A stretch of 64,000 nucleotides of DNA from Escherichia coli. GTDB lineage: Bacteria > Pseudomonadota > Gammaproteobacteria > Enterobacterales > Enterobacteriaceae. The notes below the pieces were generated by a model. It made no database searches, was not told the origin of the DNA, and saw only the letters and a program-made list of their open reading frames with translations. Location of the stretch: the NCBI RefSeq assembly GCF_003018115.1, contig NZ_CP027457.1; one strand, 5' to 3'. Position numbers and translations under genes: made by a program. Positions 16,500 through 56,921 of the stretch are shown here, piece after piece; the first letter of the stretch is position 1; the number at the start of each line of letters is the position of its first letter.

Positions 16500-16516
16500 T
16501 CCAGGGAGAAAACGGT

Positions 16517-16966
16517 ATGGCGGAAATTGGTATTTTTGTCGGCACCATGTACGGAAATTCGCTGTTAGTGGCGGAAGAAGCAGAAGCAATTCTGACCGCA
16601 CAGGGCCACAAAGCAACGGTATTTGAAGATCCTGAATTAAGCGACTGGCTGCCCTATCAGGATAAGTATGTTCTGGTGGTTACGTCCACGACCGGGCAGG
16701 GCGACCTTCCTGATAGCATTGTGCCGCTCTTTCAGGGAATCAAAGATAGTCTGGGCTTCCAGCCGAATCTGCGTTATGGCGTGATTGCGCTCGGCGACAG
16801 CAGTTATGTAAATTTCTGCAATGGCGGCAAACAGTTCGATGCCTTGTTGCAGGAACAGAGCGCTCAGCGGGTTGGCGAAATGCTGTTGATTGACGCCAGT
16901 GAGAACCCGGAACCGGAAACGGAATCAAATCTGTGGGTCGAACAGTGGGGCACGCTGTTGTCCTGA
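16517..16966 (+). CDS. yqcA: flavodoxin-like protein
   Basis: 149-aa [26 protein letters not shown]... Confidence 0.85.
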
Positions 16967-17019
16967 TATGTTCAGCGAGCGGTAAATGTCGTTTTAGCGG
17001 TGCTGAATCGAATCTTTTC

Positions 17020-17074
17020 AGGCAAATGCCAGTAAAAACTGCTTCATAGCGCGGATTTTTACTGGCGTTTGCCT
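17020..17074. other. long inverted repeat (19-bp stem AGGCAAATGCCAGTAAAAA / TTTTTACTGGCGTTTGCCT, 17-nt loop)
   Basis: Read directly; 54 bp downstream of yqcA stop; no adjacent T-run on either strand. Confidence 0.6.
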
Positions 17075-17400
17075 GGAGTCAAGCGATCCATTTCATACTC
17101 TTCTTTATTTCTTCGTTTTAACCCTTCCTTTCTTGTTCTTGTTTTCATTTCCGTGAAGTGGATTCCACCGTCCAGGGCTAATGCCAAAATCGGGCCTCAT
17201 TGAACGCATTAATGTTGTGTTGTTGCACGGTGAGCCGCTATGGCGCGCTTTTTATACTGCTATTGCCAGATATAAACACGCGCCGTATTCGGCGAACGAC
17301 CTATAAAAACGGCAAAAAACACCCTACGTCACCTCTGATTTCCTGGCGATGTCGCAGTCCAGAGTGAGCGTGGCTAACGCGAATTTTCAGGAGTGCAACA

Positions 17401-18753
17401 ATGAGTTCTTTAAGTCAGGCTGCGAGCAGTGTGGAAAAACGCACGAATGCTCGTTACTGGATAGTGGTGATGTTGTTTATCGTCACATCCTTCAACTACG
17501 GCGACCGCGCTACGCTTTCTATTGCCGGTTCGGAAATGGCCAAAGATATCGGCCTTGATCCCGTGGGAATGGGCTATGTGTTCTCTGCCTTCTCATGGGC
17601 TTATGTTATCGGGCAGATCCCTGGTGGTTGGTTGCTGGATCGTTTTGGTTCAAAACGCGTCTACTTCTGGTCGATCTTTATCTGGTCGATGTTTACCTTG
17701 CTGCAAGGCTTCGTCGATATCTTTAGTGGATTCGGCATTATCGTTGCCCTGTTTACGCTGCGCTTCCTGGTCGGGCTTGCTGAAGCGCCATCTTTCCCCG
17801 GCAATAGTCGCATTGTTGCGGCCTGGTTTCCGGCGCAGGAAAGGGGAACGGCGGTGTCGATTTTTAACTCCGCTCAATACTTCGCAACGGTGATCTTCGC
17901 GCCGATTATGGGCTGGCTGACGCATGAAGTGGGCTGGTCACACGTCTTTTTCTTTATGGGCGGTCTGGGCATTGTCATCAGCTTTATCTGGTTGAAAGTC
18001 ATCCACGAGCCAAATCAACATCCGGGTGTAAATCAGAAAGAGCTGGAGTACATCGCCGCGGGTGGCGCGCTGATCAATATGGATCAGCAAAACACCAAAG
18101 TTAAAGTGCCGTTCAGCGTGAAGTGGGGGCAGATCAAACAGCTGCTCGGGTCACGGATGATGATCGGCGTTTATATCGGTCAGTACTGTATCAACGCCCT
18201 GACTTACTTTTTCATTACCTGGTTTCCGGTTTATCTGGTGCAGGCGCGTGGGATGTCGATTCTGAAAGCGGGATTTGTGGCTTCCGTTCCGGCGGTTTGC
18301 GGTTTTATCGGCGGTGTGCTGGGTGGGATTATTTCCGACTGGCTGATGCGCCGCACGGGATCGCTGAACATTGCGCGTAAAACACCGATCGTAATGGGCA
18401 TGTTGCTGTCGATGGTGATGGTGTTCTGCAACTACGTCAACGTTGAGTGGATGATCATCGGCTTTATGGCGCTGGCCTTCTTCGGTAAGGGCATCGGGGC
18501 GCTGGGTTGGGCAGTAATGGCAGATACCGCGCCAAAAGAGATCAGCGGTCTTTCCGGTGGCCTGTTCAACATGTTCGGTAACATTTCTGGCATCGTCACG
18601 CCAATCGCAATTGGTTATATCGTTGGCACGACTGGCTCCTTTAATGGGGCGCTCATTTATGTTGGTGTTCATGCCTTAATCGCGGTACTGAGCTACCTGG
18701 TGCTGGTGGGCGATATCAAGCGTATCGAGCTGAAACCTGTCGCGGGGCAATAA
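17401..18753 (+). CDS. gudP: glucarate/galactarate transporter (MFS)
   Basis: 450-aa membrane ORF preceding gudX-gudD. Confidence 0.88.
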
Positions 18754-18754
18754 G

Positions 18755-20095
18755 ATGACGACACAATCCAGTCCTGTTATTACTGATATGAAAGTCATTC
18801 CGGTCGCCGGGCACGACAGCATGTTGCTTAATATTGGTGGGGCGCATAACGCATATTTCACCCGCAATATTGTGCTACTCACCGATAACGCCGGGCATAC
18901 CGGCATTGGTGAAGCGCCAGGCGGAGAGGTGATTTATCAGACATTGGTCGATGCTATTCCGATGGTGCTGGGCCAGGAAGTTGCGCGCCTGAATAAAGTG
19001 GTTCAGCAGGTGCATAAAGGTAATCAGCCAGCCGATTTTGATACCTTCGGCAAAGGTGCCTGGACTTTTGAATTGCGCGTTAATGCCGTGGCGGCGCTGG
19101 AAGCCGCCTTGCTTGACCTGCTAGGTAAGGCGCTGAATGTTCCGGTCTGCGAACTGTTAGGGCCAGGCAAGCAACGCGATGCTATCACCGTCCTCGGTTA
19201 TCTGTTTTATATCGGTGATCGGACTAAAACCGATCTTCCTTATCTGGAAAATACACCGGGCAACCATGAGTGGTATCAGTTGCGACATCAGAAAGCGATG
19301 AACAGCGAAGCCGTTGTGCGTCTGGCGGAAGCCTCACAGGATCGCTATGGCTTTAAAGATTTCAAACTTAAGGGCGGGGTGTTACCTGGCGAGCAAGAAA
19401 TCGACACTGTTCGTGTATTGAAGAAAAGCTTCCCGGATGCGCGGATTACCGTTGATCCCAACGGTGCCTGGCTGCTTGATGAAGCCATTTCTTTGTGCAA
19501 AGGGCTGAATGATGTTCTTACCTATGCCGAAGATCCATGCGGCGCAGAACAGGGCTTCTCCGGACGTGAAGTGATGGCGGAGTTTCGGCGGGCGACCGGC
19601 TTGCCCGTCGCGACTAACATGATCGCCACCAACTGGCGCGAAATGGGTCATGCGGTGATGCTCAATGCGGTAGATATTCCACTTGCCGATCCGCACTTCT
19701 GGACGCTTTCCGGTGCAGTCCGTGTGGCGCAGCTTTGCGACGACTGGGGGCTGACCTGGGGCTGCCATTCTAATAACCATTTCGATATCTCTCTGGCGAT
19801 GTTTACCCATGTGGGCGCGGCGGCACCGGGTAATCCTACCGCTATCGATACCCACTGGATTTGGCAGGAGGGCGACTGTCGCCTGACCCAAAATCCGCTG
19901 GAGATTAAAAACGGAAAAATTGCCGTTCCTGATGCGCCCGGTCTGGGCGTGGAACTGGACTGGGAACAGGTACAAAAGGCACATGAGGCCTATAAACGTC
20001 TGCCTGGCGGTGCGCGTAACGACGCAGGTCCGATGCAGTACCTGATCCCCGGCTGGACCTTTGACCGTAAACGTCCCGTTTTCGGCCGTCATTGA
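18755..20095 (+). CDS. gudX: glucarate dehydratase-related protein (enolase superfamily)
   Basis: 446-aa ORF paralogous to the following gudD ORF. Confidence 0.88.
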
Positions 20096-20115
20096 TTCTG
20101 AAAAAGGACATAAAT

Positions 20116-21456
20116 ATGAGTTCTCAATTTACGACGCCTGTTGTTACTGAAATGCAGGTCATCCCGGTGGCGGGCCATGACAGTATGCTGATGAATCTGA
20201 GTGGTGCACACGCACCGTTCTTCACGCGTAATATTGTGATTATCAAAGATAATTCTGGTCACACTGGCGTAGGGGAAATTCCCGGCGGCGAGAAAATCCG
20301 TAAAACGCTGGAAGATGCGATTCCGCTGGTAGTGGGTAAAACGCTGGGTGAATACAAAAACGTTCTGACGCTGGTGCGTAATACTTTTGCCGATCGTGAT
20401 GCTGGTGGGCGCGGTTTGCAGACATTTGATTTGCGTACCACTATTCATGTAGTTACCGGGATAGAAGCGGCAATGCTGGATCTGCTGGGGCAGCATCTGG
20501 GGGTAAACGTGGCATCGCTGCTGGGCGATGGTCAACAGCGTAGCGAAGTCGAAATGCTCGGTTATCTGTTCTTCGTCGGTAATCGCAAAGCCACACCTCT
20601 GCCGTATCAAAGCCAGCCGGATGACTCATGCGACTGGTATCGCCTGCGTCATGAAGAAGCGATGACGCCGGATGCGGTGGTGCGCCTGGCGGAAGCGGCG
20701 TATGAAAAATATGGCTTCAACGATTTCAAACTGAAAGGCGGTGTACTGGCCGGGGAAGAAGAGGCCGAGTCTATTGTGGCACTGGCGCAACGCTTCCCGC
20801 AGGCGCGTATTACGCTCGATCCTAACGGTGCCTGGTCGCTGAACGAAGCGATTAAAATTGGTAAATACCTGAAAGGTTCGCTGGCTTATGCAGAAGATCC
20901 GTGTGGTGCGGAGCAAGGTTTCTCCGGGCGTGAAGTGATGGCAGAGTTCCGTCGCGCGACTGGCCTGCCGACTGCAACCAATATGATCGCCACCGACTGG
21001 CGGCAGATGGGCCATACGCTCTCGTTACAATCCGTTGATATCCCGCTGGCGGATCCGCATTTCTGGACGATGCAAGGTTCGGTACGTGTGGCGCAAATGT
21101 GCCATGAATTTGGCCTGATCTGGGGTTCACACTCTAACAACCACTTCGATATTTCCCTGGCGATGTTTACCCATGTTGCCGCCGCTGCACCGGGTAAAAT
21201 TACTGCTATTGATACGCACTGGATTTGGCAGGAAGGCAATCAGCGCCTGACCAAAGAACCGTTTGAGATCAAAGGCGGGCTGGTACAAGTGCCAGAAAAA
21301 CCGGGGCTGGGTGTAGAAATCGATATGGATCAGGTGATGAAAGCGCACGAGCTGTATCAGAAACATGGGCTTGGTGCGCGTGACGATGCGATGGGAATGC
21401 AGTACCTGATTCCTGGCTGGACGTTCGATAACAAGCGCCCGTGCATGGTGCGTTAA
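20116..21456 (+). CDS. gudD: D-glucarate dehydratase
   Basis: [27 protein letters not shown]... (start at internal Met of ORF-track entry). Confidence 0.9.
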
Positions 21457-21468
21457 GACAGAAAACCA

Positions 21469-21494
21469 AAACCGGCTCTATCTGGAGCCGGTTT
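21469..21494. terminator. hairpin AAACCGGCTC-TATCTG-GAGCCGGTTT, likely bidirectional terminator (gudD / barA)
   Basis: 10-bp stem read directly; T-rich tail on the minus-strand side (TTTTGGTTTT). Confidence 0.5.
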
Positions 21495-21580
21495 GAGACT
21501 GATGCCAAACGCAAAATTGCCTGTTGCGCTACGTATCAGGCCTACATGATTTTTTTAATTCATTGAATTTAATTGGTTTT

Positions 21581-21615
21581 GTAGGCCGGATAAAGCGTTA
21601 ACGCCGCATCCGGCA
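21581..21615. repeat. REP element (GTAGGCCGGATAAAGCGTTAACGCCGCATCCGGCA) with a second REP-like copy around 21512-21547
   Basis: Matches enterobacterial REP palindrome consensus. Confidence 0.6.
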
Positions 21616-21688
21616 TAAACACAGACACTTTGTCACCAATCTGAAACCTGCTTCATAAAAAGCCGATTGCTACTCGACAAGACGTCCA

Positions 21689-24445
21689 TTACCCGAGAAT
21701 TTTGCTGGCTTCGCGCGCGACATTATCCATCTCGTCCAACAGTTCCAGCAGCTCCGGCTCCAAATCTTCTTCTTTAGTACCGCTACGTAGCTGTTGTTCG
21801 ATCAGTTGGCAGAGATTCTTCATACGCGGCACACCGCTATAGCCGCAACTGCCATGCAGTTTATGAATCAAATCAACCAGGCCTTCCGGGTTTTCTCCAA
21901 CCAGCTGTTCCTCAACTTTGTTGCGAACTTCAGGCAGGAAATCGAGTAACATTTGCAGCATATCGCGCGCTAAATCGGTTTTTCCTGCTGCCTGGCGTAG
22001 TGCCAGTTGCCAGTCGAGGGTCGCATTCGGGTTCACCACAATTTCGTTGACTTCGGGCGTCACGACGCGAGAGGAAATACCGCTGCCAGGCTTGTAGCGC
22101 AACAGCAAATTATGCAATCGCTCTTCTTCAATCGGTTTCGCCAGATAATCGCTCATCCCTGCGCCAAGCAGCTTCTCTTTTTGCCCGGCCATTGCATGCG
22201 CCGTTACCGCGATAACCGGCGTTTGTTGCTGATGGGGGAGCTGGTGGATGAGCTCGCAGGCCCGAATGCCATCCATGTCAGGCATTTGAATATCCATTAA
22301 GATCAAATCGAACGGCATCTGTTTCGCCCGTTCAACCGCCTGATGCCCGCTATCGCAAAGTTCCACATGTTGCACCATATCTTCCAGCAATGCGCCGATA
22401 AGTTTCAGGTTAGCGGGGTTGTCATCAACTGCCATGACTGTCATTGCCAGCTTGCTTTCATCGGTTACAGGCAAAAGCGTGTTTTGTTTGTGATGACAAA
22501 ATTCCGTCAGGGCAGGCAACAGGCGCGTAGGTGTTAATGGTTTCAGCAGACACGCGCCGATACCATCTTGCTTGAGTTTTTCTGCATTGACTTGTGCATG
22601 GCAAGGAAGTGCCAGCATCAGGAAATCGGTCATCGATACCGCTTTCGCTAATCGCTCATGTTGCATTGTTAGCGGCTCGCGGAAGGTCACCGCGATGCCT
22701 AACAACATCATGTCGTAATGCGCGGGAGGCAGCGCGGAGAACGTTGGGCTATAAACCACTTCCAGCGGCGTTTCACTTAAAATATCCAGCGTGCATTGCG
22801 CTGCTGCGGAGTTTGGTTCGACATAGGCCAGGCGCTTACCGGCGAGGCACTGGGTGGATGGCCCTTCGATAATAATGTTCGGGTTCAGATCGAGATTAAT
22901 GTGGAACCAGAAAGTTGAACCGCGATTCGGCTGGCTATGGAACGAAATATCGCCGCCCATTTCATTAACCAGTTTTTGTGTAATCACCAGCCCCAGACCG
23001 GTGCCACCATGACGGCGGGAAATACTGGCATCAGCCTGTCGGAAGGCCTGGAATAAGCGCGATTGATCGCGTTCAGGAATACCAATGCCGGTATCCCGAA
23101 TCTGCACTTCAATCTGCACTTTGGTATTACTCAGCGCACGTTTTTCTACCAGAATATCAATGTTGCCATTCTCGGTGAATTTAATTGCATTCCCCACCAG
23201 GTTAGTGATGATTTGCTGTAATCGCAGTGGGTCGCCGATCACGTTATCAGGCACGTCGCTTTTAATATTGAGCGTCAGTTCCAACCCTTTATCGTGAGAA
23301 GAATGTGCCAGCAGAGTAACGACTTCATCCAGCGTGCTGCGTAGTGGGAATGGAATACTTTCCAGAATCAGCTTACCTGCTTCCAGTTTCGAGAAGTCGA
23401 GAACATCATTAATAATTGCCAGCAAATTATTTGCCGAACGTTCAATCGTATTCAGGTGATCGCGCTGCGTTGGTGTTAATTCTGTTTTCAGCGTCAGGCG
23501 GGTAAAGCCAATAACACCATTCAGTGGTGTACGCAGCTCGTGTGACATATTTGCCAGAAACTCGGATTTAATACGCGCCGCTTCCTGGGCGCGCTTTTTC
23601 GCCAGATCTAACTCAACGTTCTGAATTTCCATCTGCTCCAGCGTTTCACGCAGATCGGACGTCGCCTGGTCGATATTGTGCTGCATCTCTTCGTGATAAG
23701 CAGCCAGCGACATTGCCATCGAGTTGATACCGTTTTTCAGCATATCCAGCTCGCCGAGCATAAATCCTTCCACCCGGCTGTCGAGTTGCCCGCGACGGAT
23801 GCGGTCGACGGTATTCACCATGTTGCGAATCGGACCGGTTACATCGCGCATTAAGCGCCAGCCAAAAATAAGCGCAATACCGATACAAAACAGCATCATC
23901 ACGCTGGAAATAAAGATCTCTTTATATTGCTGCAAGCGAACCGATTTAAGATCCAGCTCAAGCGCAATATATCCCAACATATTTTGACTATTTTTGGCAT
24001 CGCTACTGGGCGATTCGTCGGGGGAGTAACTCTCAGAAATAATCGGCGTGCGGAGGATCATAATATCGCCGTCACGAGTGACAGTGAGCTGGCGAGGAAA
24101 CGGCACGTTGCTGCCGAGCTGCATTGATGAGGGATCAAGATGAAAATTGGAGGTGACAAAGAGTCGGTTATTTTCATCATAAACCGAAATCGCGCGAACA
24201 ATATCGGAATGGCGACGATGCAGTACGCTTATTAACTGACCGATAGATTCGCGATTTTGCAGGCTCATGCCATATTCAGTAGAAACTGCAAGCGGCTCAA
24301 TAATGCTGGCACCGGCATCTTCCAGTTGACGCTGCAAGTCGTTATAGCGATGCACGACGAAAAAGATACTCAGCAATAAACCAATAAGGACGGTCGGTGC
24401 CAGGATCAGAATCATCATGCGTGCGCGCAGGCTGTAGTTGGTCAT
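21689..24445 (-). CDS. barA: hybrid sensor histidine kinase BarA
   Basis: 918-aa ORF with HAMP, HisKA (SHELRTP), HATPase, receiver and HPt regions. Confidence 0.92.
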
Positions 24446-28085: not shown

Positions 28086-28094
28086 TCTTACATA

Positions 28095-28135
28095 GCTGGA
28101 TATGGCGTCAGCCGTATCCAGCGATATCTTTTACT
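28095..28135 (+). terminator. intrinsic terminator after relA (12-bp stem GCTGGATATGGC / GCCGTATCCAGC, loop GTCA, tail GATATCTTTT)
   Basis: Read directly; one G-U pair. Confidence 0.65.
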
Positions 28136-28180
28136 CGAAGGTATTACACCTGACAGACCCGCAATTTTCAGGACAATTCA

Positions 28181-32282: not shown

Positions 32283-33155
32283 TTACCAGCGGCCGGATGC
32301 GCCGCCACCGCCAGAAGAACCGCCCCCGCCGCTAAATCCGCCGCCACTTGAGCCTCCAGCGGAACCGCTGTTGTCTGAATGATAACTTCTACCAGATGCT
32401 CTTTTCTGAAGTACACATAAACAGGTAAAGACCATAAATATGGTGAAAGTAAAAAAGAAGGAAAATACAGCAATGGAAAAAGTTTTATCGGAGAACAGGA
32501 ATAAATCTAAAAGATGGATTGCTGAAATACAGACTCCACTTTTACATGCGCGACAAAAATTACTGCCTTGATGAAAAAACCAGAAAGGGAAGAACATCAC
32601 TGCAAATACCCAAAAAATAGCAAAGTAATAATGATCAGTGGAAGACGTTGATTCACTTTCTGAAGGATTAGCCGGATATTGGTGTTGTGAAGTGAGTTGG
32701 TTATTCAAAGCGATTATAGCTAACTCTAATCCCTTAGCTAATTTTTGTTGTTTAAATGCGGGTATCATGTTGCTACGGATGATATCTCCAGCCAGAGCAT
32801 CGGTTACCTTTTCTTCCAGCCCATAACCTACCTGGATGCGGACAGTGCGATCCGACCAGGCAACAACGATCAGTATCCCATCATTACGTTTGGCATCTCC
32901 TAAACGCCAATTGTCAAAAACTCTTGTAGCATATTGTTCAATTGTCTCATCTTTGGTTGTGGAAACAATTAATACAGCAATTTGCACTTGGGTATTATTG
33001 AAAATAGATTCTAACTTGTGCGTCAGTTCTTTCTTTTCTTGTGAGTTTAAGCTACTCGTAAGATCCGTAACTTGTTGCTGTAATTGTGGGACAATAGTTG
33101 GTTGGGCTGCAACAAAGGAACATACGAAAGTGAACATTAGTATGAAATAGCGCAT
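32283..33155 (-). CDS. ygcG: TPM-domain membrane protein with Gly/Ser-rich C-terminus
   Basis: ORF with signal-like N-terminus [18 protein letters not shown] and [15 protein letters not shown] tail; start taken at internal Met. Confidence 0.75.
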
Positions 33156-33447
33156 TATAAATTTCTCATTAAATCTGGATAAATAAATTGACGGCGGCAT
33201 CGGTAATTTTAGATTCGTTATCATTAAAAACTAATACAGAAAAAATAAATATAATTTTGGTGAATGTTTTGACATGATTAAATCCATTTTATTTATTTTC
33301 TTCTGACATAATACGTTACTCCCTTTAATTATTAACGATATGTTTCGCATTTTTCTTTAAATCTGCATGTAACAGAATGTTAATAAGACATGATTGTTGC
33401 GGCAGGATCTGCAATAATTAACAATTATCCACTTCACAGAGAATGCT

Positions 33448-34119
33448 ATGCAGTACCCGATTAACGAGATGTTCCAGACCCTGCAAGGTGAGGGTTACTT
33501 TACCGGCGTCCCCGCCATTTTTATTCGTTTACAGGGATGCCCGGTTGGCTGTGCCTGGTGCGACACCAAACACACCTGGGAAAAGCTTGAGGATCGGGAA
33601 GTCTCCCTTTTCAGCATTCTGGCGAAGACCAAAGAGAGTGATAAGTGGGGGGCGGCGAGCAGTGAAGATTTGCTGGCTGTCATTGGTCGTCAGGGATATA
33701 CCGCGTGGCATGTGGTGATTACGGGTGGTGAGCCTTGCATTCATGATTTGCTGCCACTGACTGACCTGCTCGAAAAGAACGGTTTTAGCTGCCAGATCGA
33801 AACCAGTGGGACTCATGAAGTACGCTGCACACCGAATACCTGGGTTACCGTATCACCAAAGCTGAACATGCGCGGCGGCTATGAAGTGTTGTCACAGGCA
33901 CTGGAGCGAGCCAACGAAATCAAGCATCCAGTGGGGCGCGTACGTGATATTGAAGCACTGGATGAACTACTGGCAACGCTGACCGATGATAAACCGCGAG
34001 TCATTGCACTGCAGCCGATTAGCCAAAAGGATGATGCCACACGTTTGTGCATTGAAACCTGCATTGCGCGTAATTGGCGTTTGTCGATGCAAACCCATAA
34101 ATATCTAAATATTGCCTGA
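33448..34119 (+). CDS. queE: 7-carboxy-7-deazaguanine synthase (radical SAM)
   Basis: 223-aa ORF with CPVGCAWC cluster; formerly ygcF. Confidence 0.88.
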   Translation: MQYPINEMFQTLQGEGYFTGVPAIFIRLQGCPVGCAWCDTKHTWEKLEDREVSLFSILAKTKESDKWGAASSEDLLAVIGRQGYTAWHVVITGGEPCIHDLLPLTDLLEKNGFSCQIETSGTHEVRCTPNTWVTVSPKLNMRGGYEVLSQALERANEIKHPVGRVRDIEALDELLATLTDDKPRVIALQPISQKDDATRLCIETCIARNWRLSMQTHKYLNIA

Positions 34120-34299
34120 TTAAACATTTATAAGCGTTATAAATGGGTGGAACCTGTAAAGACTTCTACTCATTTATATTGTTTGTCGCCTCTGAAAACT
34201 CCTCCATTTTCCCCATCCAGGGCTAATCATTAGCATTCTCTACAAATTCTGCGGCATTAATTTTTCGCTGGAGTGAAAATTATTGCGGCAAAGTTTGGT

Positions 34300-34458
34300 A
34301 GATTTTAGTTTGTATAGAGTTATTTTAAATATTTACCTTTTTAATCAATGGATTAAGCGCTCTTTAACATAATGGATGTGTTGTTTGTGTGATACTGTAA
34401 AGTTGGTAGATTGTGACTGGCTTAAAAAATCATTAATTAATAATAGGTTATGTTTAGA
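34300..34458 (+). promoter_or_regulatory. type I-E CRISPR leader (AT-rich, ends ...CTGGCTTAAAAAATCATTAATTAATAATAGGTTATGTTTAGA immediately before repeat 1)
   Basis: AT-rich segment directly upstream of the first full repeat; resembles the E. coli leader as recalled. Confidence 0.65.
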
Positions 34459-35219
34459 GAGTTCCCCGCGCCAGCGGGGATAAACCGAAAATTGGGACGC
34501 TAACTCATGGGTCTGGGTAGAGTTCCCCGCGCCAGCGGGGATAAACCGGGAAAAACGCCTGTGGTTGGGGCTGAACCAGGGAGTTCCCCGCGCCAGCGGG
34601 GATAAACCGTCGGCGCGCTCTCTGTAGAGCGGTTGTGTGATGAGTTCCCCGCGCCAGCGGGGATAAACCGTCGTCGGGTCCGACAGGGGTCGGTTGTTCG
34701 CCGAGTTCCCCGCGCCAGCGGGGATAAACCGGCTTAATAAACGAGGAGAATACCGATGTTTTTAAGTTCCCCGCGCCAGCGGGGATAAACCGTTCTTTTA
34801 ATGGCGTCAGGCCCATTACAGAGCGAGTTCCCCGCGCCAGCGGGGATAAACCGTTTTGACGATTATTCTAAAAGTGAAAATAGCAGAGTTCCCCGCGCCA
34901 GCGGGGATAAACCGCACGCTGGAGTGACCGGGTGGCAGAGCATGACGAGTTCCCCGCGCCAGCGGGGATAAACCGCCATTTCATCATGAACGGCGGAAAT
35001 ATCGTGGGAGTTCCCCGCGCCAGCGGGGATAAACCGGTCAGTTCCCGGTTGATATATATGATGAGCATGAGTTCCCCGCGCCAGCGGGGATAAACCGCGC
35101 AATGGCGCGGCGATTGCTCTCGAGATCAAGTGTTCCCCGCGCCAGCGGGGATAAACCGGGTACAAAAGAGGCCCCATTCTGGCAGGGCTCGAGTTCCCCG
35201 CGCCAGTGGGGATAAACCA
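34459..35219 (+). CRISPR. type I-E CRISPR array, 13 repeats and 12 spacers of 32 nt, repeat GAGTTCCCCGCGCCAGCGGGGATAAACCG
   Basis: Repeats start at 34459, 34520, 34581, 34642, 34703, 34764, 34825, 34886, 34947, 35008, 35069, 35130, 35191 (61-bp period); variants AAG.. at 34764 and GTG.. at 35130; last repeat degenerate (..CCAGTGGGGATAAACCA). Confidence 0.97.
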
Positions 35220-35672
35220 CCATATAACCCGTTATCTCTTTCTCAAGTTTTTATATTAGCTGTACTTGTAATAAGCAACATATCCACGTAACACCTCATG
35301 TTCATAATAGTTCCCCATGCCAGATAAGTTCACAATTATCGATACAAAAAATTAAAGTTAATCAAAGTGTTATTTGTATAATTCTTAAGCCGTTAAGAAA
35401 TTTTAATCTATTATTTTTTTAATATTAATTAATGCCTGTTAATTTTTTCTTTAGTATAACAGTGTGTTTTTTAAGCTTGTTATTCATTGATTAAGTAATA
35501 AATCTGGAAATTTGTCTTTGTTTTGAGGCTAATGAGTGGTTTTACATAACCGCCTCTATACGCTGTTGATGAATAGTTCTTATGAATAAAGATATCCAGT
35601 TCATACTTTAAGTGAAAATTGATAAAGTGCGATTCGTATTGTCTTTTATTCTAAAGACATCGAGTGTAGTTA

Positions 35673-35811
35673 ATATTCCTTGTAAAAACAGGGATAAACC
35701 GAACTAGTTGAAGTTTTTATTATGTTCCCTGCATCAGCGGGGATAAACCGGACTTGTTATCATTTTTTAAGTTGTCGAACTTATGTTCCCCGCGTCAGCG
35801 GGGATAACCAT
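35673..35811 (+). CRISPR. degenerate CRISPR remnant (partial repeat ending 35701; repeats at 35722-35750 and 35783-35811; one 32-nt spacer)
   Basis: ATGTTCCCTGCATCAGCGGGGATAAACCG and ATGTTCCCCGCGTCAGCGGGGATAACCAT with 61-bp period. Confidence 0.8.
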
Positions 35812-35856
35812 TCAGGTATGTTCAGGCCGGGCAGTTTCCCGCCCGGTCTTCCTCAC

Positions 35857-37335
35857 TTACGCATTCGACCAGCTCTGGATCGAATCCGCATTCCCCAATT
35901 CCCCATGCATCACTTCATACGATTTTTTCAGGATCACATCAGTATGTTTGGTTAGGGCTTTGAAAATACCTTTATTCATCGCGTCGTAGCGTTTGGCATT
36001 GCTCTCAACAGGCATAAAGATATCTTTCACGCGAACCATTTTGTCGACAGCCGTTGCGTAATCCGGGTATAGCCCCAGACCTACCGCCGTATTGATCGCT
36101 GCCCCCAGACTTGCACAACCGTTAATGGCGTTACGGCGTGCAGGAAGGTTGAACACGTCGGCAAAAATTTGCATAAATAGATCGCTGTTCGAACCGCCGC
36201 CAGTAATGATCACATGCTTTGCAAAGTGATTCATTTCATTACACATATTGTCGTAATTGTTCTTCAGCGTCAGCGCCACGCTTTCCAGTATCGAACGATA
36301 TATCCATGCGTAATCCATGCTGGAATCAAAGCCGATCATAATCCCACGTTTGTAGGGTTCCCACGGGTTGGTCAGCCAGTCCAGCACCGTCATCAGACCA
36401 TTACAGCCAGGCGGCACACAAGAAGCTTTTTTGTTGAGCAAATCTTCCGGTGAAAGATCCTGTGCTTTGGCATCCTGAATTAACGACTCGCCTAACATGT
36501 CGCGTAGCCAGCTCACCGTCCACATGCCTTTACGGATACCGTACCCTTCATACAGCAATGTTTCCGGAATAGAAGACATAATCGGCCAGTACGCCACCGG
36601 ATCTTTCGGCAGTGCTTTACCGTTCATCATCAGCGCGATGTAGGTGCCAAGAGAAATCACCGCCGTTTCATCATCCAGCAATCCGGCTCCCAGAGCTTCT
36701 ACCGGTTTATCACTGGTGGTACAAACAACCGGCAGCCCTGCCGGGAAATGTGTCGCCAGCGCGGCTTGAGGTGTGATCTGTCCAAGAACAGTGCCTGGCA
36801 TTTGCACATCAAACAGCATATGACGGGGGATATTAAACTTCTCCATGACTGCGGCATCTTCACTCCATGCCCAGCTCTTATAATCCACCGGCCACTGACC
36901 AAAATAGTTGGCGATATTGTCTTTAAACTCGCCGGTTAAGCGATGCGTCAGATAACCCGAAAAAGAGGTGACATATGCCACGTCAGGATTAGTGTGTTCG
37001 TAGGGACGCGTTACGCGTGCATCCTGCCAGCTAATCAATGGCGCAGCTGGCGTGCCATCGGCTTTCAATAACGCACGGCAGCAACGGATGGATCCCAGAC
37101 CAATACCGACAATATCTTCTTTATTCCCGGCAAACTGACTCATCAAATCGTGACCGGCAAAACATAATGATGCCCATAAATCGTCGTCAGGATGTTCTGC
37201 GGTATCGGCATCTGGCGTGTGCATCGGCTGCAATAAGCCTTTACCTTCGCAAACCACATTACCTTCCAGATCGTACATCACCACTTTTGTGCTCTGACTT
37301 CCGCCATCAATCCCTATGATGTATTTTTTCGACAT
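35857..37335 (-). CDS. ygcE: FGGY-family carbohydrate kinase
   Basis: 492-aa ORF MSKKYIIGIDGGSQSTKVVMYD... Confidence 0.8.
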   Translation of the reverse strand: MSKKYIIGIDGGSQSTKVVMYDLEGNVVCEGKGLLQPMHTPDADTAEHPDDDLWASLCFAGHDLMSQFAGNKEDIVGIGLGSIRCCRALLKADGTPAAPLISWQDARVTRPYEHTNPDVAYVTSFSGYLTHRLTGEFKDNIANYFGQWPVDYKSWAWSEDAAVMEKFNIPRHMLFDVQMPGTVLGQITPQAALATHFPAGLPVVCTTSDKPVEALGAGLLDDETAVISLGTYIALMMNGKALPKDPVAYWPIMSSIPETLLYEGYGIRKGMWTVSWLRDMLGESLIQDAKAQDLSPEDLLNKKASCVPPGCNGLMTVLDWLTNPWEPYKRGIMIGFDSSMDYAWIYRSILESVALTLKNNYDNMCNEMNHFAKHVIITGGGSNSDLFMQIFADVFNLPARRNAINGCASLGAAINTAVGLGLYPDYATAVDKMVRVKDIFMPVESNAKRYDAMNKGIFKALTKHTDVILKKSYEVMHGELGNADSIQSWSNA

Positions 37336-38957: not shown

Positions 38958-39743
38958 ATGTCAATCGAATCTCTCAATGCGTTCTCAATGGATTTTTTCT
39001 CCCTGAAAGGTAAAACAGCAATTGTTACCGGCGGGAATAGCGGTTTAGGTCAGGCATTTGCAATGGCGTTGGCCAAAGCTGGCGCAAATATTTTTATTCC
39101 AAGTTTTGTCAAAGATAACGGCGAAACAAAGGAAATGATTGAAAAACAGGGTGTTGAAGTGGACTTCATGCAGGTGGATATCACCGCAGAAGGCGCACCG
39201 CAGAAGATTATCGCTGCCTGCTGTGAGCGCTTCGGTACCGTCGATATTCTGGTTAACAATGCCGGTATTTGTAAGCTGAATAAGGTGCTGGATTTCGGTC
39301 GTGCCGACTGGGATCCAATGATTGATGTGAACCTGACCGCCGCATTCGAGTTAAGCTACGAAGCGGCAAAAATTATGATCCCGCAGAAAAGCGGTAAAAT
39401 TATTAATATCTGTTCATTGTTCTCTTACTTAGGTGGACAATGGTCACCTGCTTATTCAGCCACTAAACATGCTCTTGCCGGATTCACCAAATCCTATTGC
39501 GATGAATTAGGTCAATATAATATTCAGGTGAATGGTATTGCCCCGGGATATTACGCTACCGATATCACTCTGGCGACCCGTAGTAATCCAGAAACTAACC
39601 AGCGCGTTCTTGATCATATTCCGGCAAACCGTTGGGGCGATACTCAGGATTTAATGGGCGCAGCCGTATTCCTCGCAAGTCCGGCATCGAATTATGTCAA
39701 CGGGCATTTATTAGTGGTTGATGGCGGTTATTTAGTGCGCTAA
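38958..39743 (+). CDS. ygcW: short-chain dehydrogenase/reductase (SDR)
   Basis: ORF from MSIESLNAFSMDFFSLKGKTAIVTGGNSGLG (Rossmann TGGxSGxG); ORF-track N-terminal extension rejected. Confidence 0.8.
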   Translation: MSIESLNAFSMDFFSLKGKTAIVTGGNSGLGQAFAMALAKAGANIFIPSFVKDNGETKEMIEKQGVEVDFMQVDITAEGAPQKIIAACCERFGTVDILVNNAGICKLNKVLDFGRADWDPMIDVNLTAAFELSYEAAKIMIPQKSGKIINICSLFSYLGGQWSPAYSATKHALAGFTKSYCDELGQYNIQVNGIAPGYYATDITLATRSNPETNQRVLDHIPANRWGDTQDLMGAAVFLASPASNYVNGHLLVVDGGYLVR

Positions 39744-39812
39744 CCCATAACGGTGGTTTCTGTTTTCTCTTATTAATGATTATTCCATTTTTATTATCAG
39801 GAAGGAATTACT

Positions 39813-41267
39813 ATGTCTTTATCTCGCGCAGCGATTGTCGACCAGCTAAAGGAAATTGTTGGTGCAGATCGCGTAATTACCGATGAAACAGTATTAAAGA
39901 AGAACAGTATTGACCGTTTTCGTAAATTTCCGGATATTCATGGCATTTATACTTTGCCGATTCCGGCAGCGGTCGTAAAACTCGGTTCCACAGAGCAAGT
40001 ATCCCGTGTGCTGAATTTTATGAATGCGCACAAAATTAACGGTGTGCCGCGTACCGGTGCTTCCGCCACCGAAGGTGGGCTGGAAACTGTTGTAGAAAAC
40101 TCGGTGGTGCTCGACGGTTCCGCCATGAATCAAATCATTAATATTGATATTGAGAATATGCAGGCGACGGCGCAATGTGGCGTTCCGCTGGAGGTGCTGG
40201 AAAACGCGTTGCGTGAAAAAGGTTACACCACGGGGCATTCTCCGCAGTCAAAGCCGCTGGCGCAGATGGGCGGCCTGGTAGCAACCCGCAGTATCGGGCA
40301 GTTCTCCACACTCTACGGCGCAATCGAAGATATGGTCGTTGGTCTGGAAGCAGTATTGGCTGATGGCACCGTGACACGTATTAAAAACGTGCCACGCCGC
40401 GCGGCTGGCCCGGACATTCGTCACATCATCATCGGCAACGAAGGTGCATTGTGCTATATCACTGAAGTAACAGTGAAAATCTTTAAATTCACCCCGGAAA
40501 ACAACCTCTTCTACGGCTATATCCTGGAAGACATGAAAACCGGCTTCAACATCCTGCGTGAAATCATGGTGGAAGGGTATCGTCCGTCGATCGCTCGTTT
40601 GTATGACGTTGAAGATGGCACCCAACACTTCACCCATTTTGCCGACGGAAAATGCGTGCTGATCTTTATGGCTGAAGGTAACCCTCGCATTGCGAAGGCG
40701 ACGGGCGAAGGGATTGCGGAAATCGTTGCCCGCTACCCGCAATGCCAGCGCGTGGACAGCAAGCTGATCGAAACCTGGTTTAACAACCTGAACTGGGGAC
40801 CGGATAAAGTGGCTGCCGAACGTGTGCAGATCCTCAAAACCGGCAACATGGGCTTTACCACCGAAGTGTCCGGCTGCTGGAGCTGCATCCACGAAATCTA
40901 CGAAAGTGTTATTAACCGTATTCGTACCGAGTTCCCGCACGCCGACGACATCACTATGCTGGGCGGTCACTCCTCTCATAGCTATCAGAACGGCACCAAC
41001 ATGTACTTCGTCTACGACTACAACGTTGTCGACTGTAAGCCGGAAGAGGAAATCGACAAGTACCACAATCCGCTCAACAAAATCATTTGCGAAGAAACCA
41101 TTCGCCTCGGTGGTTCGATGGTGCACCACCACGGTATCGGTAAACATCGCGTTCACTGGAGCAAACTGGAACACGGCAGCGCGTGGGCGTTGCTGGAAGG
41201 GCTGAAAAAGCAATTCGATCCTAACGGCATTATGAACGCGGGTACTATCTATCCGATTGAAAAATAA
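39813..41267 (+). CDS. ygcU: FAD-linked oxidase (glycolate oxidase / alkyl-DHAP synthase-like)
   Basis: 484-aa ORF. Confidence 0.75.
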   Translation: MSLSRAAIVDQLKEIVGADRVITDETVLKKNSIDRFRKFPDIHGIYTLPIPAAVVKLGSTEQVSRVLNFMNAHKINGVPRTGASATEGGLETVVENSVVLDGSAMNQIINIDIENMQATAQCGVPLEVLENALREKGYTTGHSPQSKPLAQMGGLVATRSIGQFSTLYGAIEDMVVGLEAVLADGTVTRIKNVPRRAAGPDIRHIIIGNEGALCYITEVTVKIFKFTPENNLFYGYILEDMKTGFNILREIMVEGYRPSIARLYDVEDGTQHFTHFADGKCVLIFMAEGNPRIAKATGEGIAEIVARYPQCQRVDSKLIETWFNNLNWGPDKVAAERVQILKTGNMGFTTEVSGCWSCIHEIYESVINRIRTEFPHADDITMLGGHSSHSYQNGTNMYFVYDYNVVDCKPEEEIDKYHNPLNKIICEETIRLGGSMVHHHGIGKHRVHWSKLEHGSAWALLEGLKKQFDPNGIMNAGTIYPIEK

Positions 41268-51651: not shown

Positions 51652-51915
51652 ATATTGCCGGATAAATTAAACGCCTCTGTCAGAAATGATGGGGGCGTTT
51701 TTATTTTGCGAGCAGCATTCCTGATTTTAAACGTGAACGCCGCTGGAAGAATTATCAGGTATAGAATGGCGTCGGGTGCTTGAGGCTGTCTGGCGTTAAG
51801 CATTCGCGAGGTTCCAGATGGACAAAAGCCCCAGGCGATATTTCTATCAACCTGAGGCTTACGTTCGAACCCAAACAATTCGAATGTTAGTCTCTTCTTT
51901 GCAGGGAGGCAAGAC

Positions 51916-52068
51916 ATGCTGACAAAATATGCCCTTGTGGCAATCATCGTACTGTGTTGTACAGTACTGGGATTCACGCTGATGGTAGGTGACTCGTTGT
52001 GTGAGTTGAGTATCAGAGAACGTGGTATGGAGTTTAAGGCAGTTCTCGCTTACGAATCGAAGAAGTAG
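51916..52068 (+). CDS. Hok/Gef-family type I toxin (50 aa)
   Basis: [50 protein letters not shown]: one TM helix plus conserved SLCEL...AYES signature; RBS GGGAGG at 51904-51909; a 34-codon upstream ORF (51818-51922) ends overlapping the start codon. Confidence 0.75.
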
Positions 52069-52261
52069 CCACCACGCGGGGGTAAAACCCCGCGTACTGA
52101 ATTGTGATGGTTTGGTCTCCTGCACCCTTTTTTAAAATTTATATTTTTTATGTGAATATATAGTCTCTATTTATTATTATGAATTTCAAATGAAAATCAT
52201 TAATTTATTCATAATGTAAATGTTTTATTGGCTGATATATATCACAGATAATTTTTAAAAT

Positions 52262-54358
52262 ATGCGTAAATATCCTTTAAGTTTACTGAAGGATAAAAAT
52301 ATTGTGACTTTTTTTGATTTCTGGGGAAAAACCCGACGCGGCGAGAAAGACGGGGGCGACGACTATCACCTTCTTTGCTGGCATTCGCTGGATGTAGCCG
52401 CGATGGGCTATTTAATGGTTAAAAGAAATTGCTTCGGGCTGGCTGATTATTTTCGTCAATTAGGGATTTCTGACAAGGAACAGGCGGCTCAATTTTTCGC
52501 CTGGTTGCTGTGCTGGCACGATATTGGAAAATTTGCCCGCTCTTTTCAACAACTTTACCTGCCCCCTGAACTCAAGATTCAGGAAAGTGCCAGAAAAAAT
52601 TACGAAAAAATCTCTCATTCAACGCTGGGCTACTGGTTGTGGAATCATTATTTAAGTGAATGTCAGGAGTTACTTCCTTCATCTTCGCTCTCTCCGCGCA
52701 AACTTAGGCGAGTGATAGAAATGTGGATGCCCGTGACGACAGGGCATCATGGTCGGCCCCCTGATCGTATGGATGAATTGGATAATTTTCTGCCTGAAGA
52801 CAAAGCTGCAGCACGAGATTTTCTCCTTGAAATCAAACCACTGTTTCCGCTCATAGAGATCCCCGCATTCTGGGATGATGATGAGGGCATTGAACTTATA
52901 AAACACCTTTCCTGGTATATCTCTGCAACCGTCGTGCTCGCAGACTGGACGGGTTCGTCAACGCGATTTTTTCCACGCGTCGCACACCCAATGGATATTA
53001 AAGGTTACTGGCAGAAAACTTTAATTCAGGCTCAAAACGCCTTAACCGTCTTTCCTCTAAAAGCAAAAGTCGCGCCTTTCAACGGAATTAATACGCTGTT
53101 TCCTTTTATTGAGAATCCGACACCGTTACAGCAAAAGGTGCTGGATCTGGATATCAGCCAGCAAGGACCGCAGTTATTTATTCTGGAAGATGTGACTGGC
53201 GCAGGTAAAACAGAAGCGGCGCTTATCCTGGCGCACAGGTTGATAGCTGCGGGGAAAGCTCAGGGGCTGTTTTTTGGTCTGCCAACAATGGCAACGGCCA
53301 ATGCCATGTACGATCGGCTGGTCAAAACCTGGCTTGCTTTCTATTCGCCAGAATCCCGCCCCAGCCTGGTGCTGGCACATAGTGCCCGCACATTAATGGA
53401 CCGCTTTAATGAATCACTCTGGTCTGGTGATTTAGTCGGGTCAGAAGAACCGGATGAACAAACGTTCAGTCAGGGATGTGCGGCCTGGTTTGCCGACAGT
53501 AACAAGAAGGCGTTGCTGGCTGAAATTGGCGTCGGCACGCTGGATCAGGCGATAATGGCGGTGATGCCGTTCAAACATAATAATCTGCGGCTTCTGGGGC
53601 TGAGTAACAAAATCCTGCTGGCTGATGAGATCCACGCCTGTGACGCTTACATGTCGTGCATTCTTGAAGGGTTGATCGAGCGGCAGGCGCGTGGCGGAAA
53701 CAGCGTTATTTTGCTTTCTGCCACGTTATCTCAACAGCAGCGCGACAAACTCGTCGCTGCCTTTGCGCGGGGTACAGAGGGCCAGCAAGAAGCTCCGTTC
53801 CTGGAAAAGGATGATTACCCCTGGCTGACGCATGTCACGAAATCCGATGTGAACTCACACCGGGTAGCGACGCGCAAAGACGTTGAGCGTAGCGTCAGCG
53901 TGGGTTGGCTTCATAGTGAACAAGAGTGTATTGCGCGTATCGAATCGGCGGTAAGTCAGGGGAAATGCATCGCCTGGATCCGGAATTCTGTCGATGACGC
54001 TATTAAGGTTCATCGTCAGCTGCTTGCCCGCGGCGTCATTCCTGCTTCCAGCCTTTCACTTTTTCATAGCCGCTTTGCTTTTAGCGATCGCCAGCGAATT
54101 GAAACGGAAACGCTGGCACGCTTTGGTAAATATTGTAGTTTACAGAGAGCGTCGCAAGTCATTGTTTGTACACAAGTAATTGAGCAAAGCGTGGATATTG
54201 ACCTGGACGAAATGATCTCCGACCTGGCCCCTGTTGATTTGCTGATTCAGCGAGCAGGACGATTACAGCGGCATATCCGCGATATTAATGGTCAGTTAAA
54301 GCGTGACGTGTTCCCCGCGCCAGCGGGGATAAACCGGGTACACGGATATTCTGTCTAA
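52262..54358 (+). pseudogene. cas3: cas3 (type I-E), truncated at its 3' end: about 682 codons of Cas3 fused in frame to a CRISPR repeat at 54307/54308
   Basis: HD motifs (HSLDVAAM, WHDIGKF), Walker A (TGAGKTEAA), DEIH box (LADEIHACD), motif VI (QRAGRLQRH); the final 17 ORF codons (VFPAPAGINRVHGYSV) translate repeat and spacer. Confidence 0.85.
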
Positions 54359-56920: not shown

Positions 56921-56921
56921 G

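Follow-up and report, generated by a model that had tools for sequence, protein, structure and literature searches.

The window, the whole 64-kb stretch of Escherichia coli DNA that was analyzed, carries the E. coli CRISPR-II locus. Between queE and ygcE lie the array CRISPR2.3, with its own leader, and the fossil mini-array CRISPR2.2, both named as in PMC3903273. The order queE-array-ygcE was the same in the window, K-12, BL21, E9, and F9792. The features of the locus were the following.

33448 to 34119, plus strand: queE (ygcF), the upstream flank, from the open reading frame list, with the queE annotation in the collinear loci of F9792, K-12, and BL21.
34120 to 34458, plus strand: CRISPR2.3 leader, the 339-bp interval between the queE stop and repeat 1.
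34393 to 34398, plus strand: leader -10 box, at the position mapped in PMC3384332; TACTGT here, TACTAT in K-12 and BL21.
34399 to 34458, plus strand: 60-bp leader core for spacer integration, according to the requirement defined in PMC3384332.
34459 to 35219, plus strand: CRISPR2.3 array, its leader-proximal end at 34459, from repeat and spacer parsing of the window.
35673 to 35811, plus strand: CRISPR2.2 fossil mini-array, three degenerate repeats in the same intergenic region as CRISPR2.3.
35857 to 37335, minus strand: ygcE, the downstream flank of CRISPR-II, from the open reading frame list and the locus annotation.

The CRISPR2.2 mini-array at 35673 to 35811 was absent from the earlier note on this DNA; its repeats 2 and 3 and the spacer between them were identical in K-12, BL21, E9, and F9792.

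CRISPR2.3 was found to consist of 13 direct 29-nt repeats, their starts spaced by a strict 61-nt period (34459, 34520, and so on to 35191), and of 12 spacers, each exactly 32 nt long and no two alike. The 27-nt repeat core occurred 20 times in the 64-kb window and not once in 100 shuffles; the CRISPR2.3 repeats comprised 12 exact core copies and 1 copy with two mismatches, and fitted the E. coli type I-E consensus G(A/T)GTTCCCCGCGCCAGCGGGGATAAACCG. Parsing, period, and shuffle test therefore confirmed the earlier note's second type I-E array of 13 repeats and 12 spacers downstream of queE, and CRISPR2.3 is a bona fide array of this type. The repeat variants were also as that note described them, with repeats 1 to 5, 7 to 11, and 13 starting with GAG, repeat 6 with AAG, and repeat 12 with GTG. 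Repeat 13 was degenerate (..CAGTGGGG..ACCA). As new repeats are copies of repeat 1 (PMC3384332), the limitation of AAG to repeat 6 indicates that this variant arose after repeat 6 had been copied. When folded as RNA, the repeat gave a 7-bp stem with a 4-nt loop (-15.1 kcal/mol, z = -3.6), a predicted hairpin of the Cas6e type, so that a CRISPR2.3 transcript is predicted to present the stem-loop bound by Cas6e. A search of positions 33400 to 36000 against Rfam 15 gave no family match at an E value of ≤0.01, which most likely reflects the content of the library rather than the sequence.

The AT-rich leader reported previously was recovered, with a GC content of 0.32 over its 339 bp against 0.51 for the whole window, and with the stated end (...AATAATAGGTTATGTTTAGA) directly before repeat 1. 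It was identical to the K-12 leader at 334 of 339 positions (98.5%) and to that of BL21 at 333 of 339, every difference lying at or beyond -62; the 61 nt adjacent to the array therefore did not differ from either strain, and the 60-bp integration element next to repeat 1 was present in the window. A consensus promoter scan of the leader found no sigma-70-like site on the plus strand, and a promoter and terminator scan of leader and array gave counts not above those of shuffled sequences. The A-to-G change in the -10 box was seen in all four deletion strains examined (see below) and was absent from K-12, BL21, and E9. A link of this change to cas loss was nevertheless rejected, because G is common at 34397: the leader segment was found in 4,228 of 5,426 complete E. 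coli genomes, and 1,155 of these 4,228 carried it, including O157:H7 and ATCC 8739.

The integrity of the leader had earlier been presented as something of an oddity for an array without cas genes. The intactness was borne out, but the oddity was not, since PMC3903273 describes the CRISPR2.3 leader as conserved across all E. coli, including strains without cas-E, and cas-E-less strains that have kept array and leader after cas loss, as in the window, are described there as well (Almendros et al. 2014). An experimental parallel is “array I” of BL21-AI, the standard locus for spacer acquisition assays (Yosef et al. 2012), which occupies the queE-ygcE locus and is likewise an orphan, its strain having no cas genes; its spacers are different, and it differs from the window by six leader substitutions further upstream, including one in the -10 box. 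In BL21-AI, this locus accepted spacers when Cas1-Cas2 was supplied from a plasmid, and Cas1 plus Cas2 proved sufficient for acquisition next to a 60-bp leader segment with a single repeat, GAG and GTG repeats both working (PMC3384332). With leader core and first repeat intact, the window array would by analogy take up spacers again if given type I-E Cas1-Cas2, as had been suggested, and its leader is probably competent for re-use. Compared with K-12, the window CRISPR-II locus showed the same flanking genes, orientation, 29-nt repeat family, 32-nt spacer length, and degenerate last repeat ending in ACCA. In K-12, where CRISPR-II is also known as array II, GTG repeats predominate and the array holds 6 spacers; in the window, GAG repeats predominate and the 12 spacers are different ones.

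The spacers for which a match was informative, and the trailer-end block, were located as follows.

34610 to 34641, plus strand: spacer 3, matching a lambdoid prophage gene (phrog_5215, IMG/VR contig L024) at 30 of 32 positions, with ATG.
34732 to 34763, plus strand: spacer 5, matching IncHI1 plasmids (R27, pHCM1, and about 200 others) at 32 of 32 positions, with AAG.
34915 to 34946, plus strand: spacer 8, matching psiA in the leading region of F-like plasmids at 32 of 32 positions, with ATG.
34976 to 35007, plus strand: spacer 9, identical in reverse complement to a CRISPR1 spacer of TUM12355 (the one copy read in sequence).
35098 to 35190, plus strand: spacers 11 and 12 with the GTG-type repeat 12, a trailer-end block common only to five O169:H41-type genomes.

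Protospacers were identified for 4 of the 12 spacers (3, 5, 8, and 12), and the 5' flank was AWG in all four, where AWG stands for AAG or ATG and its G corresponds to the final repeat base. Such motifs, ATG or AAG, are interference-proficient in type I-E systems. The earlier note had proposed a spacer search with a check for an AAG motif; the search was productive, but AAG was found for spacer 5 only, and spacers 3, 8, and 12 had ATG. Spacer 12 corresponded to traD of F-like plasmids (28 of 32 positions on pE2865-3 and 90 to 95% on about 1,500 plasmids). The genome and plasmid search returned 2,851 plasmid places; all plasmid matches among those listed were of spacer 8 on psiA, and nearly all of the 2,851 are expected to be this site. 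The psiA target is also present on the ST/CS6 virulence plasmid of F9792, the closest relative. For spacer 9, a 34-nt match was found inside the arrays of five more genomes (A7, strain 41, WL164, NCTC9088, and FCI51). A CWT motif has been shown for the non-K-12 Cas1-Cas2 variant, and among natural spacers of the non-K-12 type, CAT (ATG as written here) is far commoner than CTT (AAG) (PMC3737337). The AWG motifs in the window agree with that motif.

For the other 8 spacers, the plasmid, phage, IMG/VR, and complete-genome searches identified no source. Spacers 1 to 7 and 10 had no match in the 5,426 complete E. coli genomes, the nine spacers other than 5, 8, and 12 gave only chance-level matches in the plasmid search, and exact IMG/VR scans with 20- to 22-nt seeds returned nothing for spacers 1, 2, 7, and 9. 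The phage collection, searched with all 12 spacers, gave only two weak matches, one of them a 1.9-kb record with a psiA-like site. The other, a match of spacer 11 (28 of 32), was rejected on its non-AWG flank, TCT, and IMG/VR matches of spacer 4 (22 of 32) and a second one of spacer 3 (24 of 32) were assigned to chance, as they did not extend. The self-targeting check that had been called for was carried out across the window, where the spacers of neither array matched anything outside the arrays beyond 11 to 15 nt.

The second CRISPR locus of the window lies beside iap, with the following features.

51917 to 52069, plus strand: hok (Hok/Gef toxin), upstream of cas3, from the sequence and annotated in F9792 and E9.
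52262 to 54307, plus strand: cas3 pseudogene, the first 2,046 of about 2,700 nt, with the HD nuclease and helicase core kept and the C-terminal part deleted.
54308 to 54702, plus strand: CRISPR1 (CRISPR2.1) leaderless remnant, six GTG-type repeats and a degenerate terminal repeat.
54723 to 55760, minus strand: iap, a flank of the CRISPR-I locus, from the open reading frame list.

The open reading frame at 52262 to 54358 is a 3'-truncated cas3 that runs straight into the first CRISPR1 repeat. The cas3 remnant amounts to 682 codons, matches NF007248 over positions 4 to 665 of 878 with 403 bits, below the curated cut-off of 569, and is annotated by NCBI as a pseudogene in relatives. By blastn, the window cas3 nucleotides did not align to K-12 cas3, and identity to K-12 Cas3 was about 40%, judged by eye on the protein alignment. 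On these sequence comparisons, the remnant belongs to the non-K-12 cas variant; a hok gene upstream of cas3 marks the non-K-12 (E1/O157-type) arrangement according to PMC3903273. This divergence made K-12 cas3 unusable for breakpoint mapping, which was therefore done on strain E9. Nucleotide 2046 of cas3 was found to be joined to the first base of the CRISPR1 repeat at 54308, with 1 nt of microhomology, and the intact E9 locus carries casA through cas2 where the deletion lies. Lost at the iap locus were thus the 3' quarter of cas3, casA-E, cas1, cas2, and the CRISPR1 leader. The deletion of the cas operon at this locus, as inferred in the earlier note, was thereby established, and the GTG type of the iap-side array was verified at 54308 to 54641. 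K-12, by comparison, keeps a complete E2-type operon at the iap locus, whereas the window has lost one of the E1 type. The 64-kb window was without cas1, cas2, the Cascade genes (cse1, cse2, cas7e, cas5e, and cas6e), or an intact cas3, and the collinear annotated F9792 has the cas3 pseudogene as its sole cas feature there. The prior statement that adaptation and interference genes are missing from the window therefore stood for every other cas gene but had overlooked the cas3 remnant.

The main cas-less arrangements described in PMC3903273 arose by recombination between IS elements. Unlike those arrangements, the window junction involves no IS element and connects an internal position of cas3 with the opening base of a repeat. 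Two possible aids to the deletion were considered. Recombination of a self-derived cas3 spacer with its protospacer was unsupported, because ATA, and not AWG, stands in front of the last 32 nt of cas3 ahead of the junction. A GCGTTCCCC motif 13 nt 3' of the cas3 breakpoint resembles a repeat start but is out of register with the junction.

The array would not be orphaned if its transcript were processed and its spacers used by a full type I-E cas operon at some other site, chromosomal or plasmid-borne. This is highly improbable. According to PMC3903273, type I-E cas has one chromosomal home in E. coli, iap-cysH, and this is the site of the deletion in the window; when a query containing type I-E repeats was run against the five closest complete genomes, its matches were confined to two places, the two arrays. 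In addition, an active spacer 8, with its perfect psiA match and ATG motif, would exclude F-like plasmids, the virulence plasmid of the closest relative included.

The same cas3-repeat junction was found in F9792, F6326-C1, LR882990, 2014EL-1345-2, and F8111-1SC3, that is, in five of five O169:H41-type enterotoxigenic strains (ETEC), and also in 13E0767, JNE23-001, OkiPb01716, and WEC. The allele is present in at least 10 complete genomes, and YZLc4-1 is a probable carrier, its BLAST hit profile being equal to that of WEC. Among carriers, the remnant differed by 0 to 2 SNPs in 1,908 nt, while the flanks were 1.2 to 1.7% different, and the deletion allele is thereby shown to have a single origin. 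The O169:H41 group was the closest overall to the window (99.8% and 99.0% over 25-kb pieces). Over 901 nt, its CRISPR1 remnant was 100% identical to that of the window in F9792, F6326-C1, and LR882990, 99.9% in 2014EL-1345-2, and 99.8% in F8111-1SC3. An ISVsa5/IS186B insertion lies upstream of cas3 in F9792 but not in the window.

At CRISPR2, the O169:H41 group had the trailer of the window, with spacers 11 and 12, the GTG repeat 12, and the degenerate last repeat, although F9792 has one extra spacer between the shared spacers 11 and 12. The ten leader-proximal spacers were wholly different. Growth was thus polarized: what the window and its nearest relatives have in common is limited to the GTG repeat 12 and two spacers at the trailer end, and toward the leader there are private sets of 10 spacers in the window and 9 in the F9792 group, which did not overlap and were both absent from all other genomes among the 5,426. 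If the deletion had been inherited vertically from a common ancestor, these private spacers would have been added after the cas genes were lost. The deletion would then already have been present in the ancestor that the window strain shares with the O169:H41 ETEC, and the spacers would have been inserted by type I-E Cas1-Cas2 acting in trans, encoded perhaps by a transient plasmid or another element. The identical junction and CRISPR1 remnant and the nearly identical CRISPR2 flanks, with only the trailer end of the spacers in common, are what this history would leave, as are private sets found in no other complete genome and an intact leader core, and acquisition in trans at the queE-ygcE locus has been demonstrated (PMC3384332). 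If true, a chromosomal orphan array would have been extended by natural adaptation in trans.

The two loci, however, need not share a history. Between the window and F9792, there were 0 SNPs over 51717 to 57410 (5,694 bp) within surrounding DNA that was mosaic at about 0.5 to 4%, the enclosing region showing 7 to 40 SNPs per kb, and 3 SNPs outside the spacers between 32299 and 35956 (about 2.9 kb), so that the deletion block and the CRISPR2 block differ in divergence. Moreover, 13E0767 and WEC carry the same deletion allele beside wholly different CRISPR2 arrays and flanks, which indicates that the allele moves between backgrounds. No source of type I-E Cas1-Cas2 in trans is known here, and all four known protospacers lie on mobile elements with AWG, as selection under an intact system would give. 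Growth after cas loss is on these grounds quite improbable, and recombination is the likelier explanation for different leader-proximal spacers beside a common deletion.

Recombination could instead have acted on the array itself, the leader-proximal block having been imported from an unsampled cas-active donor with crossovers in queE or the leader and in a repeat. SNP-free and SNP-rich blocks alternate in the window relative to the nearest relative, exchange of CRISPR-Cas modules by recombination in E. coli is documented in PMC3903273, and a common trailer end with all leader-proximal spacers different would be expected. Against this, spacers 1 to 7 and 10 occur in none of the 5,426 complete genomes, leaving no known candidate donor, and the 3 SNPs of the CRISPR2 flanks all fall in the 2.2 kb to the left of the array, so that this flank is nearly that of F9792 and any donor must have been a very close relative, hard to separate from acquisition in place. 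Such an import is considered unlikely.

The preferred reading, held with good confidence, is that the type I-E CRISPR-II array was built under an E1 cas operon, was orphaned by one deletion, and is now an inert memory. The array would have grown from the leader end while the lineage still had a non-K-12 (E1, O157-type) operon at the iap locus, with conjugative plasmids and a temperate phage as the main sources of spacers, taken beside AWG motifs. One deletion of at least 6.6 kb, probably later, removed the 3' end of cas3, casABCDE, cas1, cas2, and the CRISPR1 leader, and the resulting allele is present in several E. coli backgrounds, most likely through homologous recombination. The leader promoter may still transcribe CRISPR2.3; with Cas6e gone, no crRNA would be made, and without Cascade and Cas3, or Cas1-Cas2, neither interference nor acquisition would take place. 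Both acquisition before cas loss and the present inertness of the array are inferred from this arrangement of loci.

The CRISPR-II array, the conservation of its leader without cas, and spacer uptake with Cas1-Cas2 in trans are all already published. The value of the locus is as a historical record of past immunization against F-like plasmids (psiA and traD), IncHI1 plasmids, and a lambdoid phage. An intact system with spacer 8 would be expected to bar F-like plasmids, the ST/CS6 virulence plasmid included, and this offers a plausible selective reason for the spread of a single cas deletion allele.

The feature is the Escherichia coli CRISPR-II array, here in a strain whose cas operon has been lost; this is an ordinary and well-documented arrangement. 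The window is E. coli chromosome. A 4-kb query around the array matched 5424/5426 complete E. coli genomes; the annotated neighbors in the matched genomes were ygcG, yqcG, queE, a CRISPR feature, and ygcE. The gene order queE, leader, array, mini-array, ygcE was common to the window, K-12, BL21, E9 (a strain with an intact E1, O157-type cas operon), and F9792, the closest sequenced relative. In the naming of Almendros et al., the queE-ygcE locus is CRISPR-II, with arrays CRISPR2.3 and CRISPR2.2 (PMC3903273). The features were as follows.

34459-35219: CRISPR2.3, the main array
35673-35811: CRISPR2.2, a fossil mini-array of three degenerate repeats (repeat finder)
52262-54358: truncated cas3 open reading frame, running directly into the first CRISPR1 repeat at 54308

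Reading of the sequence from 33900 to 35500, together with a repeat finder, gave a 29-nt repeat present 13 times in CRISPR2.3 with a period of 61 nt, the last copy at 35191-35219, and 12 spacers, all unique and each exactly 32 nt. The 27-nt repeat core was found in 20 copies in the window (13 in CRISPR2.3, 1 in the degenerate neighbor array, and 6 near iap), compared with 0 in 100 shuffles. The CRISPR2.3 repeats mostly started with GAG, while repeat 6 started with AAG, repeat 12 with GTG, and the final repeat was degenerate; the sequence just upstream of repeat 1 ended in ...AATAATAGGTTATGTTTAGA. The predicted fold of the repeat RNA is a 7-bp stem closed by a 4-nt loop. The repeat variants described in an earlier note, including GTG in the iap-side array, were all confirmed by reading, and its details of the array held, but it had overlooked both the CRISPR2.2 mini-array and the truncated cas3. 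CRISPR2.2 repeats 2 and 3 and the intervening spacer were identical in K-12, BL21, E9, and F9792, and the 450-bp stretch between the two arrays had a GC content of 28%.

The cas3 remnant encodes the Cas3 HD and helicase-core domains, covering only positions 4 to 665 of the 878-position Cas3 model. K-12 Cas3 was only ∼40% identical to it (by eye, from a protein alignment), K-12 cas3 gave no blastn alignment with its nucleotide sequence, and a hok gene was found upstream, a feature of the E1 arrangement (PMC3903273). On these sequence grounds, the remnant is assigned to the non-K-12 variant. Comparison with the intact E1 operon of E9 placed the breakpoint after nucleotide 2046 of 2700 of cas3 and confirmed the cas deletion proposed for the iap-side locus. 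At least 6627 bp are missing, comprising the rest of cas3, casA, casB, cas7e, cas5e, cas6e, cas1e, cas2e, and the 96-bp CRISPR1 leader. The deletion endpoint coincides exactly with base 1 of a CRISPR1 repeat, and the microhomology there is 1 nt. In the junction region (54290-54340), the repeat is joined where a leader or spacer would normally end, and chance alone would place a breakpoint this close to the start of a repeat (within 1 nt) about once in 30. Elsewhere, the window is collinear with the annotated strain F9792, in which this region holds no further cas genes. Hence, within the window, CRISPR1 lacks both a leader and cas genes, and CRISPR2.3 keeps a leader but lacks cas genes. The earlier statement that the window holds no adaptation or interference genes is thus correct for cas1e, cas2e, and the Cascade genes but not for the truncated cas3; overall, the earlier interpretation holds in large part.

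The leader, from the queE stop codon to repeat 1, is 339 bp with 32% GC, compared with 51% for the window. It was identical to the K-12 leader at 334/339 positions and to the BL21 leader at 333/339, with every difference at least 62 nt upstream of repeat 1. A 61-nt segment of the leader was present in 4228/5426 complete E. coli genomes, and the CRISPR2.3 leader has been reported as similar across all strains, whether they carry cas-E1, cas-E2, or neither (PMC3903273). In cas-less BL21-AI, K-12 Cas1 and Cas2 supplied from a plasmid drive spacer insertion at the “array I” of Yosef et al. (NC_012947, positions 1002800 to 1003800), where 60 bp of leader and one repeat suffice and GAG and GTG repeats are both functional (PMC3384332); the sequence at those positions verified this as the same queE-ygcE locus. 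An intact leader without cas genes, which the earlier note implied to be odd, is therefore unsurprising. Since the 61 array-nearest bases are identical to those of BL21, the earlier suggestion that spacers could be inserted into the array is backed by experiments on this locus in a different strain. Position 34397, in the −10 box mapped for the leader promoter, carries an A-to-G change (TACTAT to TACTGT). The changed allele was present in each of the four cas-deleted strains examined, but a link to cas loss was rejected because it is common, occurring in 1155 of the 4228 genomes, O157:H7 and ATCC 8739 among them.

The 12 spacers (sp1 to sp12, numbered from the leader end) were concatenated and searched against all complete E. 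coli genomes (n = 5426). Spacers sp1 to sp7 and sp10 were in no other genome, sp11 and sp12 were found only in five O169:H41-type genomes, and sp9 was found inside arrays in six other strains. In TUM12355, the only copy read in sequence, sp9 (34976-35007) is the exact reverse complement of CRISPR1 spacer 2, with the same 32-nt boundaries; the five further strains gave the same 34-nt match. Since simple inversion of a 33-nt prespacer would have moved the boundaries by 1 nt, a single protospacer with a motif on each strand appears to have been captured twice, independently. Plasmid places in the search numbered 2851 in all; sp8 accounted for every plasmid match among those listed, at sites in psiA, a gene of the leading region of these plasmids. 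Targets were identified for four spacers.

sp3: lambdoid prophage contig (IMG/VR) with neighbors RusA, methyltransferase, and Q antiterminator; 30/32; motif ATG
sp5: IncHI1 plasmids such as R27 and pHCM1; 32/32; motif AAG
sp8 (34915-34946): psiA of F-like plasmids; 32/32; motif ATG
sp12: traD of F-like plasmids; 28/32 on pE2865-3 and 90 to 95% on ∼1500 plasmids; motif ATG

The search proposed earlier, with a check of the adjacent motif, thus yielded AAG at one protospacer and ATG at three, giving an AWG flank (AAG or ATG) at 4/4. The K-12 Cas1-Cas2 proteins select CTT (= AAG) only, the O157-type variant selects CWT (= AWG), and natural O157-type spacers mostly flank CAT (= ATG) (PMC3737337). 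The motifs are therefore consistent with the cas variant whose remnant adjoins. The remaining spacers had no match in the plasmid collection or IMG/VR, a search of a phage collection gave nothing convincing, and no spacer targeted the window itself. The sister CRISPR2 array of F9792 (L001:1989-2690) likewise appears to target plasmids, judging from BLAST matches: spacer 2 matched a P-loop NTPase gene on plasmids of ∼110 kb and spacer 7 traG of F-like plasmids.

Nine further complete genomes had the same cas3-repeat junction on reading, and in a tenth, YZLc4-1, the profile of BLAST matches was that of WEC. In all carriers, the cas3 remnant differed from the window by 0 to 2 single nucleotide polymorphisms (SNPs) in 1908 nt, compared with 1.2 to 1.7% in the flanking DNA, and the CRISPR1 remnants formed one ancestral spacer series differing only by spacer loss or duplication. 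Strains 13E0767 and WEC had CRISPR2 arrays unrelated to that of the window, with an 11-kb deletion alongside. The carriers therefore share one old deletion allele, now in different backgrounds. In 13E0767 and WEC (L019:4272-5300 and L020:4126-5300), queD follows almost directly after the CRISPR2 array, with ∼11 kb from ygcE to ygcN missing (roughly 35.9 to 46.5 kb in the window). The mazEF toxin-antitoxin pair was missing between relA and mazG in the window (28086-28180) and F9792 and present in 13E0767, JNE23-001, OkiPb01716, and WEC.

Against F9792, the window had 0 SNPs at 51717-57410, surrounded by DNA with 7 to 40 SNPs per kb, a mosaic pattern that is what homologous recombination produces. 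The whole window (1-64000) was strongly mosaic, with SNP-free blocks of 4 to 6 kb also at 1828-6030 and 16426-22429 and intervening blocks differing by 0.5 to 4% (e.g., 42 SNPs in 39001-40000). An insertion of ∼2.7 kb between hok and cas3 in F9792 (L002:1-2009), consisting of ISVsa5 and a partial IS186B, is absent from the window (∼52080) and thus postdates the shared deletion allele.

The five O169:H41-type genomes were closest to the window (99.8% and 99.0% over 25-kb pieces; next best, 99.3% and 98.4%). Their deletion junction was identical, their CRISPR1 remnant matched at 99.8 to 100% over 901 nt, and two trailer-end CRISPR2 spacers were shared. The CRISPR2 flanks were nearly those of the window (3 SNPs outside spacers from 32299 to 35956), yet the leader-proximal spacers were private, ten in the window and nine in F9792; private spacers of either were in no other complete E. 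coli genome. Taken alone, this pattern would suit an ancestral deletion followed by array growth with Cas1-Cas2 supplied in trans, a sequence of events that we consider very improbable. Divergence is not the same in the deletion block, with 0 SNPs over 5.7 kb, as in the CRISPR2 block, with 3 SNPs over 2.2 kb; the deletion allele is demonstrably found in unrelated backgrounds; and the known protospacers are all on mobile elements with AWG motifs, as selection by a working system would give. AWG motifs (ATG or AAG) permit type I-E interference. We therefore favor the view that both lineages gained spacers under intact cas genes and received the deletion allele later by recombination.

A plausible reason for the cas loss is the barrier to plasmids that sp8 would pose. 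A perfect match with an ATG motif was found in psiA of the 145-kb ST/CS6 virulence plasmid of F9792 (NZ_CP024274.1, 141042-141073), whereas the CRISPR2 array of F9792 itself has no spacer against it. When directed at plasmid F, type I-E interference is an effective inhibitor of conjugation, and CRISPR spacers show enrichment for leading regions of MOBF plasmids (PMC3737333). Given the psiA match, a working system with the array of the window should keep out most F-like plasmids, and loss of cas would remove this barrier.
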